Shown here piece after piece: positions 57,001-63,000 of a DNA stretch of 64,000 bases. Position numbers: made by a program. This DNA is from Candidatus Limnocylindrales bacterium (GTDB taxonomy: Bacteria > Chloroflexota > Limnocylindria > Limnocylindrales > CSP1-4): the NCBI GenBank assembly GCA_036570185.1, contig DATCPH010000076.1, forward strand, positions 2,322-66,321, written 5' to 3'. The stretch's first letter is position 1. Each line of letters starts with the position of its first letter.

Positions 57001-60000
57001 GAGCGCCGGATCAGCGCCATCATCGTGTACTCGAGCGTGCCTTCCCAGCGCTCGACGGCGATCGTCTCGGCGATCCAGCTGAACACCACCGAGAGGTAGT
57101 TCCAGAAGATCGCCCCGACGATCAGGGTCAGGAGCAGCCTCGGGCTGCCCTGGTCGGCGCCGATGAGCGAGACGGACAGCGCGCCCGCGGCCGAGTAGAC
57201 CAGGAATGCGATTTCCCAGCCCCAGTAGCGGCGCGTCAGGAAGAAGTTGCGTTCGATGAAGGCGTAGCTGGCCCTCACCTCGTGGGCGACAGTGGTCACG
57301 GTGGTCTCACCTCATTTCTCATTCGTTCTCAGCGCCGTCTTCGTCGACGTCCTCGTCCAGGGAGCGGCCGGTGTAGGTCATGAAGACCGCGTGCAGGGTC
57401 GGTTCTTGGTGGTGCTCCGCGGCGACGAGGCGCTTCAGGCCGTCGGGCGTGTCCTCGGCCACGACGCGGCCGTCGTTGAGGATCGTGATCCGGCCGGCCA
57501 GCCGCTCGGCCTCGTCGAGGTCGTGCGTGGTCAGGACGATCGATGCGTCGTGGGTCTCCCGAAGCTCCTTGATGAATGCCTGGACGTCGAGCTTCGATCG
57601 CGGATCGAGCCCAGTCGTGGGCTCGTCGAGCAGCAGGAGGGATGGGCTCGTGAGCAGGGCTCGCGCGATCGCGACCTTCTGCTGCATGCCCCGGCTCATC
57701 TGCTCGACCGGGCGGTTCACCCGGCTCGACGAAATGCCCAGTCGACCGAGGATCGACACCACGTCCGATTTCGCCTTCCTCGCGTCGAGCCCGTAGAGGC
57801 GCGCGGCGAACAGGAGGTTCTCCATCGGACTGAGCTTCTTGAAGAAGGCGGCATCGACGCTGACGCGGTTGATCAGGCGCTTGACCGCCATCTCCTCGCG
57901 TACGAGATCGTGGCCGAAGACCTCGACTCGGCCTTCGTCGAGGGTGAGGAGCCCCGAGACGAGGCGGATCAGGGTCGACTTGCCGGAGCCGTTGGCGCCG
58001 AGGATCCCGTGGATGTCACCACGCTCGAGGCGGAGCGACACACTCGAGATCGCGGTCACGGGAGCCTTCTTGCGATTGACCTTGAAGCGCTTCGTGACAC
58101 GGTCTACGACGAGGGCCGGCGCGCCGTTCGAGGCCCGTCCATTGGCCTCGGGCTGGTGGGCTTCGAGTCCCCCGGGCGAAGCCGGCCGATCCGAGAGATC
58201 GCTATTCGGTTGTCGGATCAGGGTGGCGGTCACTTCGGACTCCCTTGTGAGGGTGGGCGGCGGACTTGAGGTGGCTTGGTGACGGTGTTCCGGGCCGGAA
58301 CGGCAAAGAGCCGCGAGTCCGGATCGGACGCGATCGCGTCGTCTGGGCTCGCGGCTGGTGCGATGCCCGCGGGTAGGCATCAAAAAAGCCGGGGGCCCGA
58401 TCTGGCCCGCGGCTCGCGGCTGGCTTTGTGAGGCGGTCCTACCGCCTGGCAGCTAGCTCGAGGTGGGCGCAGATCTCCCGCGATCGGCGGCGCCGAGTGG
58501 CGCGACCGAGCGTCGGATCACGAAGCTTTGCCTCATTCGGAGATGTCTCCTCAGAGCTGGACAGGGGTGCCGGCGGCACCGGTTGGGAACCTTAGCGGCG
58601 ACCGTTCTGCGATGTCAAGGATGGCGAGGGTCGTGGGCGCGTCGGGCGCCGCTCGGGCCGCAAGTTCCCGCCACTCGATCTCGAGGCGGTCGCTAGTCAG
58701 CCTCTTCCTGCCACGTGGCCGTCTGGTGATCGCCAGTCAGGATCCTGGCGCCGCGCCCTGATCCGCCGCCTCCCCCGCGGCGAACTTGCCTTGTCGAGTG
58801 ACCGCCTGGTGATCGCCTGTCAGAAACCGGGCTGAGCCTGACTCCGGACACAGGCCGAGCGCGAGTCCGCACAGCGGTTGCTCAAAACACCGGGTCCGCG
58901 TTGACGGTCGCCGAGATGGGTCATAGGCTGCCAACCCCGCGCGAGCCGACCAACGCCGACCAGCGCCGCCCCAATCGCGAGGTCGTTCATGGGTCTGTCC
59001 GACACCCGAAATCGTTTTCGTCCGCCCCAACGTCATCCACGATCGATCGTCGAGCTGATCCGGCTCGGGACGATAGATGCCGAGCTTGCCGGCCTGCTGT
59101 GGCTGCTCGTCGAGGCGCGATTCCCGGTCACTGTCGCAGCCCTTGTGGGCGGCGTCGGGAAGTCGACCGTGCTCGGTGCTCTCCTCATGCTGCTGCCGCC
59201 GGGCGTCCGACAGGTGGAGCTGGGGGGCGTCGACGAGACGTTCGTCTGGCTCTCCGGTGCGGATCCCAGCGACACGTATCTCGTCGCCGCCGAGCTGTCC
59301 AATCACTTCCCGGCATATACATGGGGCGCCGAGGCGCGGACGGCAATCCAGGCCACGGGACGCGGATTCGGTCTGGGGGCGACGATCCACGCGGACTCGC
59401 TCGAGGAAGTTTTCGATGAGCTTCGGTCCCCTGGGGTCGGGGCCACCGAGGACGAGCTCTCGTGGCTCGGCCTGGTCGTGGTCGTTCGCGCAGTAAGGAA
59501 TGCAGCCGCGAACCCGGACGGCAGCCCGGCGCGGCGCATCGTCGCGGCCCACTACCTGCGACCGTTCGCCCGCGACGCGGGCGGCCACATCCAGCGCCTA
59601 CCGCCGGCGGTCCTCGCGACCTGGGATCCACGCGACGACTCGTTTGAGCATTTCGCCTGGGGCGTGATCTCGGAGCTGGCTCTCCGAGCGGGGCGCAAGT
59701 CGGGCGAGTTCGAGTTGGAAGTCGAGCGTCGCCGCGAGTATCTCGCCGGGTTGGCGGCAGCCGGCGTCACGGCAATGGATGCAGTAGCTTCGGCCATCAG
59801 CGGATATCGCGATGAGCGGCTACGCGCGTCTACTCACTGACCCGTGACGCCCGCGAGCCGGTGCGCCAGCCGCGCGGGAGAAGTCAGCGCCGTGAAACGG
59901 ACCGGCCCGGCGTCTCGGGCGCCGGGCCGGTCGATGCCTCCTCGAGACGTGACGCTAGGCGATCATCGGCTCGGCGCTGCGAGCGGACCAGAAGGCCCAC

Positions 60001-63000
60001 GCTGCAACGACGAAGTGGAGGACGTTGTCGAACGGATTCTCGAGGTTGGCGAGCCCGAACGTGTTGGGCGACGCATTACCCGAGACGACCAGTCCGTACA
60101 CCGCGAAGAAGAGCGCGATGACCCCGACCAGGATCACGATCCAGCGGTAGTAGGGACGGAGCGCGCTGTTGAGGCCGGGGACGTACACGGCTGCCAGGGC
60201 GATGATGCCGAGGCCGGTGTGCGCCACGTTCTCGCCACTGTCCAGATAAAAGCTGGGATATGCCGACGCGCTGCTCAGGAACGCGAAGCCGGCGAGCCCG
60301 AGGATGAGCAGTACCGCTCCGCCGACGATCAGGAACATGCGCAGGGTGAAGAACGACGCCATCGACATCCGGATCTCCCTCTTCGAAACTGACCGATCGG
60401 TCCAACCGACCTGTCTGGGCGGATGGAAAACGCAATGTCGCCTACCGGCGACCACACCCTCTTCCTGCGCATCCCTCCTCTAACCCTACCGGGCGGCTCG
60501 CCCGCTGAAGCATTGGCCGCTCGTCAACGCGACGCGAGCCTCCCGAGGCGCCCATTCCTGAAGCCATTCGAAGCTCAACCGTCCATACGCACCCCGATCC
60601 CGGATGGTTTGACGGCCTTCCGCGACGGTCGTACGCTCGGCGCCCGTGTCTTCCAACCCCGCGTCCTTCGCCCCAGAGACTCTTTCCCATCGCCCGTCAA
60701 CCCTCGCCGAGCTGCGTGCATCGGGCTGGCGGCGCCGAACGGTCAAGGAGGAGCTCCGGGCCAATCTGCTCGCCCGGCTCGGCGAGAGCGAGGCCGTCTT
60801 TCCAGGGATCGTCGGCTTCGAGGAGACGGTGGTGCCCGCCGTCGAGAACGCCATCCTGGCCGGCCAGGACATCGTCTTCCTCGGCGAACGCGGTCAGGCC
60901 AAGACGCGGATGGCGCGGCTTCTCGTGGGCCTCCTTGACGAGTGGCTTCCGACCGTGCGCGGCGGCGAGCTGAACGACGATCCCACGGCGCCGATCAGCC
61001 CCTCCGCGCGGGTCATCGTCGCCGAGCATGGCGAGGCGACGCCCATCGACTGGCTGCCGAGGGACCGGCGCTATGCCGAGAAGCTCGCGACCCCCGACAT
61101 CACGATTGCCGACCTCATCGGGGAGGTCGACCCGGTCCGCGTCGCCGAGGGCCGCTACCTGTCGGACGAGTTAACCCTCCATTACGGTCTTGTTCCGCGG
61201 TCCAATCGCGGCATCTTCGCGATCAATGAGCTGCCCGACCTCGCCGAGCGCATCCAGGTTGGACTGCTCAACATCCTCGAAGAGCGGGACGTCCAGATCC
61301 GCGGCTTCCAGATCCGGCTGCCCCTTGACCTGCTGGTCGTGGCGTCGGCCAATCCGGAGGACTACACGTCGCGGGGCCGGATCATCACGCCACTGAAGGA
61401 CCGTCTCGGCTCGGAGATCCGAACCCATTATCCGAGGACGCTGGAGCACGAGATCCAGATCGTCCGCCAGGAGAAGCAGCGCTTCGAACCCGACGAGGGG
61501 ATCCCATCCGTGGCGGTGCCGGACTTCATGGAGGAACTCGTCGCCGAGCTCACTCACCTCGCCCGACGCTCGCCGGAGATCAGCCAACGCTCGGGAGTGA
61601 GCGTCCGGGTCTCGGTCGCCAACATGGAGGTGCTCGAGGCGGCAGCTCTCAAGCGTGCTGTCCGGCTGGGGGAGGCCACCGCGGCTCCCCGCGTCTCGGA
61701 TCTCGGGGCCGTCGTCGCGTCGACCGTCGGCAAGGTCGAGCTCGAGACCGCCGGCGATGACGTGCCCGAGGAACGCGTCGTGGAGCGCCTGATCACCAAG
61801 GCCGTCTTCGCGACCTTCGGCGGGCGGCTCGCTCTCGACGAGCTCGACGACGTCGTGGAGGCCTTCGAGGACGGTCTCATTGTTGAGACCGGCGAACGAA
61901 CCGCATCGCGCGAATACGTCCGGTGGCTGCACGAGATCCCGGGTCTGCCTTCGGCCGTGCGACAGCTGGGAATCGTTGAAGGTGCGGGCGTCAGCGACGG
62001 CAACGACGCGTCCGATCCCGCGGTGATTGCCTCCGCCGTGGAATTCATCCTCGAAGGCCTGCACCTGTCGCGCCGGATCAACAAGGATCGGGCGGCTTCG
62101 GGCAGCGTCTACCGCCGATGAGGCTCCCCATGGCCACGGCAGCGAGCGTCCCTTCACGGGCCCGGGTACGTTCGCGGGCGCGGGGCATTTCGTGACGTTC
62201 TGGACGCCGGATCGGCGCGATCTCGGGGACCTGCCCGGCGGAGCGGTCGCCCGGGAGGGCGCCCTGGCTCGCCGCGCGCGGTACTCCCGCTGGGACGGCA
62301 GCCAGGCCATTCCCGACTTCGACGCCGACGAGCTGCTTGACGCGCTGGCCGACGACGTGATGGCGGAAGGCGACATGGCTGAGGCACTGCGGCGGCTGCT
62401 GGAGCGTGGCCGGCGCTCGGACGATCCGACGCGGTCCGACCTGGCGGGCTTGCGCGACCTGATGGATCGACTCTCCGAGCGGCGCAGGGAGCTCCTCGAC
62501 CGCTACCAGCTCGGCGACGTGCTCGCGGACATTCGCAGCGAGCTCGATGAGATCGTCCGCGAGGAGCGATCCGGGCTGGGGCGCAGGCTCGCCCGGGGGT
62601 CGGATCCGCCCGAATCCGCGCCTGGCGCTGACGCCCCCGCGCCCGGCGCCGAGGCCCCCGATCCGAAGCTCTCGAAGATGCTCCGTGACGCGGCCGCGCG
62701 CCGGATGGACCAGCTCGATGCCCTGCCGGCCGACGTTGGAGATCGGATCCGAGGGCTCCAGCAGTACGACTTCATGGAGCCCGTCGCTCGCGAGCGATTC
62801 GACGACCTCGTCGGCCGCCTCCAGAAACAGGTCCTCGACCAGTACGTGAGCGGCCTTTCCGAGGCCATCCAGGGAATGACTCCGGAGGACCTGACGGCGA
62901 ACCGCGAGATGGTCCGCGATTTGAACCACCTCCTCGGGGAGCGCCTCGCCGGACGCGACCCCGATGCCTCCGAGTTTCTGGCCAGGCATGGACGCTTCTT

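Follow-up and report, generated by a model that had tools for sequence, protein, structure and literature searches.

An ATPase of the GspE/PilB/FlaI superfamily is taken as a sign that a secretion or filament machine is present. The hexamer of these motors is built by contacts between the N-terminal domain of each subunit and the C-terminal domain of its neighbour, which also pass the movement on to the membrane platform, and this N-terminal domain is thought to be needed for a working hexamer; the Asp-box residues are required for function as well. Another group of machines combines an AAA+ ATPase with a protein containing a VWA domain, such as ChlI/ChlD, CobS/CobT and the MoxR-VWA pairs, which act on a third protein. 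Besides, type IV pilus loci of Thaumarchaeota are associated with pairs of a vWA protein and a MoxR/GvpN-like ATPase, and the archaellum is regulated by ArnB, also a vWA protein (PMC4858521). Here we analysed a 64-kb stretch of DNA (the window) on contig DATCPH010000076.1 of a Candidatus Limnocylindrales bacterium. We describe in it the gene sFlaI, which encodes the ATPase core of an archaeal-type FlaI/GspE protein without its N-terminal domain, and whose relatives are generally followed by an AAA+ gene and a VWA gene.

sFlaI represents a Chloroflexota-wide family under purifying selection and is neither a decayed relic nor an orphan. No earlier description of the family or of the three-gene cassette was found in the searchable literature, and the members are labeled “hypothetical”, “FlaI” or “type II secretion system protein E” in databases. 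What is new here is a secretion-ATPase core that has no N-terminal domain and keeps to a new, conserved set of neighbouring genes.

Family, fold and catalytic motifs of sFlaI

The 283-aa open reading frame (ORF) reported in the initial annotation exists (Table 1), and it starts with an ATG preceded by a GAGG Shine-Dalgarno sequence 6 nt upstream. The protein is identical to P0001, a predicted protein of a Candidatus Limnocylindrales metagenome-assembled genome (MAG), and the window DNA, whose GC content is 65-72%, has the same sequence as a permafrost/soil metagenome contig and a MAG contig of Candidatus Limnocylindrales (Chloroflexota). It turned out that sFlaI has 1064 homologues at E<=1e-3. 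The family forms 199 clusters (50% identity, E<1e-30) with members in Limnocylindria, Thermomicrobiales, Dehalococcoidia, Ktedonobacteria and marine contigs, and relatives are encoded in 258 GTDB species representatives, nearly all of them Limnocylindria. The ratio of nonsynonymous to synonymous substitution rates (dN/dS) is 0.215 and 0.097 against two close relatives, which together with the 1064 homologues identifies the forward-strand frame as the gene. For the AAA+ and VWA genes the ratio is 0.075, so that purifying selection on sFlaI is somewhat weaker.

No Pfam family matched sFlaI significantly, and PF00437 (T2SSE) was not matched even at E<=1; a few relatives carry a weak precomputed PF00437 match. 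The NCBIfam matches were all sub-threshold, with FlaI as the best (5.9e-10) and TadA as the next, and the model NF058587 (ArlI/FlaI) reached 38.5 bits against a cut-off of 550 over residues 12-73 only. Sequence searches against PDB matched only the GspE of Archaeoglobus (afGspE; 2OAP) and FlaI (4IHQ, 4II7), at 2.7e-7 and 7e-4 with the single sequence and at 5.8e-15 and 3.4e-14 with a profile of 20 family members. The profile alignment to afGspE spans residues 220-499 of 511 and includes the archaeal-type C-terminal region.

The same relatives were found at the structural level. An AlphaFold2 model of sFlaI built on the family alignment (predicted local distance difference test 86.6, predicted template modelling score 0.87) was searched with Foldseek, and the two values obtained for each match were 1.2e-16 and 28.0 for afGspE, 6.7e-17 and 26.0 for FlaI, 1.1e-6 and 23.3 for PilB, 3.9e-8 and 19.9 for CpaF, and about 1e-4 and 12-14 for VirB11/HP0525; KaiC and FlaH (second value about 7) fell outside the significant matches. 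In conclusion, a RecA-like ATPase domain of the GspE/FlaI type is present in sFlaI, and its nearest relatives are archaeal-type FlaI/GspE, not CpaF or VirB11. The label “CpaF/VirB11-like” of the initial annotation was thus right about the superfamily and is to be replaced for the nearest relatives, and the KaiC/ParA family that it had named as an alternative is excluded, KaiC being outside the significant structural matches.

The N-terminal (N2D/PAS-like) domain is absent, since sFlaI begins at the inter-domain linker and the alignments start at about residues 217-220 of FlaI/afGspE; the archaellum-specific N-terminal three-helix bundle is absent together with the N-terminus. All over the family the lengths are 260-310 aa, indicating that the missing domain, which had been correctly noticed before and described as a truncation, is a family trait and not a local loss by decay.

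For the catalytic motifs, many distant members carry GPxxAGK[ST]T in the P-loop, which aligns without any gap to LVGGVGKST of the window. The loop length is therefore normal, and the two-residue deletion described in the initial annotation is an alignment artefact; what happened instead is a substitution of the first Gly by Leu52, at a position where the members of the family have E, D, A, G, R or Q. In the Asp box, “IEDTPE” of FlaI corresponds to “LGGVDE” of the window, so that of the acidic residues of FlaI only the final Glu (E83) is still there and the E-D pair has gone. Across 371 family sequences, Gly takes the place of the Asp in 324, and Glu is found at E83 in 310. The Walker-B Glu, which had been reported as lost along with the Asp box, is retained. 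By residue counting in the profile alignment (“YILVGEIRDK” vs “YLVAAELSNH”), E102 aligns to E336 of FlaI, the residue mutated in hydrolysis-deficient FlaI. At E102, 307 of 371 family sequences have Glu, and the close relatives have it without exception. After Walker B the family has an insertion of eight residues, HLPxYxWG (profile line “vllvaELsdhlPsytwG” vs “YILVGEIRDK--------” of FlaI), and E102, S104, Y110, W112 and G113 are near-invariant. The His box announced in the initial annotation is present, and H134 is conserved in 287 of 371 sequences.

The triad K58/E102/H134 is intact in the window protein, in all of its closest relatives (120 of 120) and in nearly all matches of a second, distant clade (114 of 115). 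Among the 50%-identity cluster representatives that could be scored, it is intact in 39 of 82; one or more of its residues are missing in 43, and all three in 20. These triad-losing members belong mostly to a sister group from Chloroflexota MAGs, and the median identity of their C-terminal half to the window protein is 53%, against 29% for the intact distant clade. Because Lys, Glu and His are all kept, the window sFlaI is, as far as its sequence tells, not demonstrably a pseudo-ATPase; this label, given to it earlier, fits the sister lineages without all three residues. Nevertheless, it belongs to a lineage in which catalysis was dispensable repeatedly.

The spacing between the motifs also varies. 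In most Limnocylindria members, the stretch from the Asp-box Glu to Walker B is lengthened by a variable insert of about 21 aa (“ELGW...”), and several of them carry an N-terminal G-W-W-G-like motif. The subclade of the window (P0001-P0003) has neither of the two, and its E83-E102 spacing of 19 is that of the distant clade.

Linkage of sFlaI to AAA+ and VWA genes

The first gene downstream of sFlaI on the same strand encodes a ChlI/BchI-like AAA+ ATPase (Table 1). NCBIfam BchI and BchD stayed below their cut-offs, and ChlI in PDB was matched at 1.1e-9. The next gene encodes a VWA protein, whose VWA_2 domain (2e-7) is C-terminal and which weakly matches a cobaltochelatase subunit; the full gene on locus L093 of a close relative carries the precomputed Pfam domains Mb0984_helical, Rv0959_3rd and VWA_2.

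To figure out how far this arrangement is conserved, neighbours were located by tblastn, and linkage was counted when the AAA+ gene lay within 3 kb downstream on the same strand. Two samples were used: 80 loci from GTDB species representatives (of the 258 encoding a relative), nearly all Limnocylindria, and 55 metagenome loci collected with a profile of the second clade, whose proteins are 31-45% identical to the window protein. Generally, the AAA+ gene is found downstream of sFlaI in both samples (76 of 78 scorable Limnocylindria loci; 33 of 36 scorable distant-clade loci), followed by the VWA gene in 73 of the former and in 21 of 22 scorable cases of the latter. Thus “orphan”, as the initial annotation had called the gene, does not hold. 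An ABC transporter flanks the Limnocylindria loci upstream but is missing from those of the distant clade; since the latter keep the trio without it, the trio and not the wider neighbourhood is the conserved unit. Where gene calls exist, the intergenic gaps within the trio are 8-26 nt. Even P0145, a fully degenerate sFlaI member, is still followed by the AAA+ gene.

For example, the megaplasmid of the cultured Thermomicrobium roseum DSM 5159 has the trio in the same order, annotated as “type II secretion system protein E” (TRD_RS11475, 302 aa), “sigma 54-interacting transcriptional regulator” (TRD_RS11480) and “VWA domain-containing protein” (TRD_RS11485). Directly after the VWA gene lies TRD_RS11490 (L155 11375-11740), a 121-aa hypothetical protein without family match. 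It has tblastn matches in six distant-clade metagenome loci (L101, L103, L104, L116, L130 and L142), and such a gene may be a fourth cassette member in the distant clade.

Components of type IV filaments, Tad, VirB or archaellum systems were not found among the scanned ORFs of the window, which agrees with the initial annotation, and the annotated neighbourhoods of the related loci inspected contain no platform (GspF/PilC/TadC/ArlJ), pilin or prepilin peptidase genes.

In the window, a gene for a small membrane protein on the opposite strand adjoins sFlaI, as had been described; its assignment to DUF4383 is weak (Table 1). DUF4383 was not found by tblastn in L001-L082, which are 82 other Limnocylindria loci, and is present only in the close relatives of the window (L093-095, L153 and L154). 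As a functional partner of sFlaI it was ruled out by this distribution. It is a recent lineage-specific insertion that splits sFlaI from its usual downstream partner.

The window contains further AAA+/VWA-type modules (Table 1), indicating that the organism carries several parallel systems of this kind. One is a MoxR (AAA_3)-DUF58-VWA-BatA-like cluster, and another includes a CoxE-like VWA protein beside XdhC-type maturation genes.

Table 1. Positions of sFlaI, its motifs and the surrounding features in the window
Feature	Position	Strand	Remarks
sFlaI	58989-59840	+	283 aa; homologue of the C-terminal ATPase domain of archaeal-type FlaI/GspE; without N-terminal domain
Walker A, LVGGVGKST (residues 52-60)	59142-59168	+	canonical length; G57, K58, S59 and T60 kept
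Asp-box remnant, ELGGVDETF (residues 77-85)	59217-59243	+	by profile alignment to FlaI and afGspE
Walker B, YLVAAELSNH, with family-specific insertion FPAYTWG	59277-59327	+	catalytic Glu E102
His box, ATIHADS (H134)	59379-59399	+	aligns to T(L/F)HA of afGspE and FlaI
Antisense ORF	58737-59588	-	equal in length to sFlaI
DUF4383 small membrane protein	59955-60368	-	137 aa; Pfam 28.1 bits against a cut-off of 27
ChlI/BchI-like AAA+ ATPase	60646-62121	+	491 aa; Rv0958-type; Pfam AAA_5, Sigma54_activat, Mg_chelatase
VWA protein	62192-64000, past window end	+	711 aa in full; Rv0959-type; by frame translation
Further AAA+/VWA-type modules	8213-12270, 47961-49376, 49285-50541		
35-nt direct repeat	58715-58749 and 58798-58832		copies 83% identical, 83 nt apart
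Leader promoter	58618-58589	-	TTGACA-N17-TAnnnT
Leader micro-ORF	58536-58453	-	27 codons, MRQSFVIRRSVAPLGAADRGRSAPTSS; GGAG Shine-Dalgarno before it
Terminator hairpin with U-run	58408-58382	-	GC-rich; hairpin 58393-58408, T-run to 58382; terminator scan agrees
Second long hairpin	between terminator and ABC ATPase start	-	
Start of DrrA-like ABC ATPase	58233	-	Shine-Dalgarno and GTG

Proposed role of sFlaI and alternative explanations

The explanation we favour, and consider somewhat more probable than not, is that the FlaI/GspE-derived sFlaI belongs to an AAA+/VWA machine, as its adaptor, its regulatory subunit or its client. In this view, the C-terminal ATPase domain of an archaeal-type FlaI/GspE filament ATPase has become a separate RecA-fold protein, which most likely no longer drives filament assembly or secretion. 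It would work with the ChlI-like AAA+ protein and the large VWA protein, homologues of the uncharacterised mycobacterial Rv0958/Rv0959, as a nucleotide-binding subunit of a chelatase-like or MoxR-like remodelling machine. Such a position is proposed because the known pairs act on a third protein. Homology, fold, motif states, selection and linkage are the observations from which we infer an interaction with the AAA+ and VWA proteins and a role of the nucleotide.

As for this nucleotide, the intact P-loop Lys, Walker-B Glu and His-box His make ATP binding, and perhaps slow hydrolysis, likely in the lineage of the window, judging by these residues. In the sister lineages the same residues have decayed and the gene has been kept, so the core role is probably protein-protein interaction and not catalysis. 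Selection keeping Lys, Glu and His in most lineages, together with their repeated loss in genes that persist, points to a partner-binding role which the nucleotide would modulate. A more far-reaching version, which we put forward tentatively and regard as possible though less than probable, is that the trio forms an undescribed three-component cytoplasmic machine, in which the core of a filament motor serves as a nucleotide-gated adaptor or client ring and has repeatedly become a pseudo-enzyme.

Several observations weigh against the adaptor or client role. The support for an interaction of sFlaI with the AAA+ and VWA proteins consists entirely in gene linkage. The loss of both the first P-loop Gly and the Asp box makes ATP binding by the window copy uncertain. 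sFlaI also evolves faster than its neighbours, with about 55% identity to the Limnocylindria orthologues against 78% for the AAA+ protein and 72% for the VWA protein. The remaining points concern the linkage itself, and most of them at the same time favour the alternative that survives best, namely that sFlaI does a housekeeping job of its own, as a small independent NTPase or nucleotide sensor, and stands next to the AAA+/VWA genes through inherited gene order. In the window, the operon is broken by the opposite-strand DUF4383 gene, which leaves about 800 bp between sFlaI and the AAA+ gene. sFlaI occurs without adjacent AAA+/VWA genes in Ktedonobacteria (where the neighbours are His_Phos_1 and GT4), in marine (TARA) SAR202-like contigs and in a few Limnocylindria, and the AAA+ gene is missing at L032, L140 and L113. 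At L081 (8955-9158) and L152 (970-1413), DUF2269 comes directly after sFlaI, which looks like an excision of the AAA+/VWA pair; one of these two sFlaI copies has its Lys changed to Arg and the other is fully degenerate.

The gene order of Limnocylindria is conserved beyond the trio as well, since the synteny extends to the ABC transporter, DUF2269 and an aldolase and is partly general gene-order conservation. This class alone is therefore no proof of a functional link, and it is the distant clade and T. roseum that carry the argument. In Actinobacteria, the AAA+/VWA pair was found without sFlaI at the one locus inspected (Tsukamurella). Solo sFlaI on the one side and the actinobacterial pair alone on the other side mean that neither strictly needs the other in cis. 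We nevertheless think the independent NTPase unlikely, though it deserves serious weight, because the adjacency survives at 31-45% identity without the ABC transporter and also in T. roseum, because the spacing within the trio is typical of an operon, and because a degenerate member keeps its AAA+ neighbour.

Some further observations were made at these loci. A tblastn search for the DUF2269 membrane-protein gene gave 66 loci, which with a single exception are Limnocylindria-type (e.g. L093 16698-17180); wherever gene calls exist, it stands downstream of the VWA gene. The Tsukamurella pair sits a few genes after purH; this matches the position of Rv0958/Rv0959, which sit after purH (Rv0957). 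A 286-aa gene upstream of the Tsukamurella pair was considered as a diverged sFlaI and ruled out, as it had no profile match. In a Sphaerobacter sp. MAG (L088 8001-14141), a sFlaI homologue is followed by PrkA (AAA+), DUF444/YeaH (VWA-like) and SpoVR, with a citrate synthase gene upstream as in T. roseum, non-adjacent in L088. This single case may show one AAA+/VWA module displacing another.

Much less credit can be given to the idea that sFlaI is a working motor for a type IV filament or an archaellum-like system encoded elsewhere in the genome, which we hold to be very unlikely. The retained Walker-A Lys, Walker-B Glu and His box would suit a motor, and Chloroflexota have acquired archaellum clusters from archaea (PMC12488501); such clusters are also a possible source of the sFlaI ATPase core. 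However, sFlaI has no N-terminal domain in the whole family, no Asp-box pair (Gly at the Asp position in most sequences) and no platform partner, pilin or peptidase gene in the neighbourhoods inspected, which makes a secretion or filament motor unlikely, and the loss of catalytic residues in many lineages that keep the gene argues in the same direction.

Slightly lower still we rate the possibility that the trio is a defence or conflict system dependent on nucleoside triphosphates, like the “ternary” MoxR-vWA ones, in which sFlaI would be the sensor or effector. The three-gene architecture with AAA+ and VWA components is in its favour, and ternary MoxR-vWA conflict systems are reported for multicellular bacteria, Chloroflexota-like lineages included (PMC7159879). 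On the other hand, PADLOC gave no match for sFlaI, AAA+, VWA or DUF4383 at E<=0.01, no effector-like domain is present, the AAA+ protein is ChlI-like and not MoxR proper, and the stable position and vertical-looking conservation in the 258 species representatives do not resemble patchy islands. The last alternative, namely that the gene is what remains of a secretion ATPase, as a decaying relic (a relic had been suggested in the initial annotation) or as a pseudogene, or that the ORF is an antisense artefact (which had been considered there), could appeal to a weaker codon bias (GC content at third codon positions 0.77 vs 0.84-0.90 in neighbouring genes), the deviant P-loop, the lost Asp box and the equally long opposite-strand ORF, but is refuted to the point of being negligible by more than 1000 full-length homologues with conserved amino acids and invariant motifs, by dN/dS of 0.10-0.22 and by the confident predicted fold.

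Returning to the adaptor or client subunit, the findings matter in several ways. A family of more than 1000 members, widespread in soil Chloroflexota, which consists of the ATPase core alone and is tied to AAA+/VWA genes, means that this core can be reused for another purpose, and it gives a caution against the annotation “type II secretion system protein E” for sFlaI genes. The series from intact to degenerate members is natural material on the change from enzyme to pseudo-enzyme. Besides, the cultured T. roseum offers a handle on the function of Rv0958/Rv0959-type pairs, those of mycobacteria included. If the three-component machine is real, sFlaI would be the first type IV filament ATPase derivative functioning outside secretion and filaments, and the first defined partner for the uncharacterised Rv0958/Rv0959-type pair.

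Upstream spacer, and sFlaI among known systems

The region upstream of sFlaI had been described as a 600-bp repeat-containing non-coding region. The 35-nt direct repeat is indeed there (Table 1), and the spacer also contains a conserved leader with a micro-ORF, upstream of the neighbouring ABC exporter. In the part adjoining the ABC transporter, the nucleotide sequence itself is conserved among about 80 Limnocylindria loci. The micro-ORF has the consensus ...RR..AP.GA.D.GRS[AV]PISS-stop and was recovered in 59 of 62 aligned loci, where the stop codons vary. With its promoter, terminator and second hairpin, the leader looks like a transcription attenuator of the DrrAB-like ABC-2 exporter, or like a small-peptide gene with its own exporter. 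The search of the spacer against Rfam matched no family, with only a sub-threshold Xoo2. As a part of the sFlaI system the ABC-2 transporter was ruled out, because it is missing from the distant-clade loci that keep the trio.

The direct repeat lies in the other part of the spacer, which is unconserved even in the closest relatives L153 and L154. Each copy holds a partly palindromic core, TGGTGATCGCC(A/T)GTCAG, and the repeat is possibly an operator for the sFlaI promoter.

Compared with known systems, sFlaI is most similar to FlaI/ArlI (PDB 4IHQ, 4II7) and the GspE of Archaeoglobus (2OAP), with which it has in common the helix motif before the P-loop, GK[ST]T, the Walker-B Glu and the His box, and whose archaeal-type C-terminal helical region (W-D..D.F ... 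RR..L ... Y) aligns to its own. Unlike them, it lacks about 215 N-terminal residues and the three-helix bundle, its Asp-box E-D has become x-Gly, it has the eight-residue insertion after Walker B, and the clade of the window does not keep the first P-loop Gly; in the loci inspected, it never stands beside ArlJ/TadC, pilins or a prepilin peptidase. With Tad/CpaF and VirB11 it shares the superfamily and the ATPase core.

The cassette as a whole resembles ChlI/ChlD, CobS/CobT, MoxR-VWA and Rv0958/Rv0959 in the two-part logic of an AAA+ ATPase combined with a protein that carries its VWA domain at the C-terminus, and Pfam names two domains of its VWA protein after Rv0959/Mb0984. It differs from the ChlI/ChlD and CobS/CobT machines in having no substrate subunit of the ChlH/CobN type; its third gene is the FlaI-derived P-loop protein, which was seen only in Chloroflexota and is absent from the one actinobacterial locus inspected. 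The association of a FlaI-family ATPase with an AAA+/vWA pair, proposed to be regulatory, is also found in the vWA and MoxR/GvpN pairs and ArnB (Makarova et al. 2016, PMC4858521), and these serve as a precedent for the role proposed here. In those systems, however, a full-length ATPase stands in a complete pilus locus, whereas sFlaI is the core only and has no pilus locus around it.

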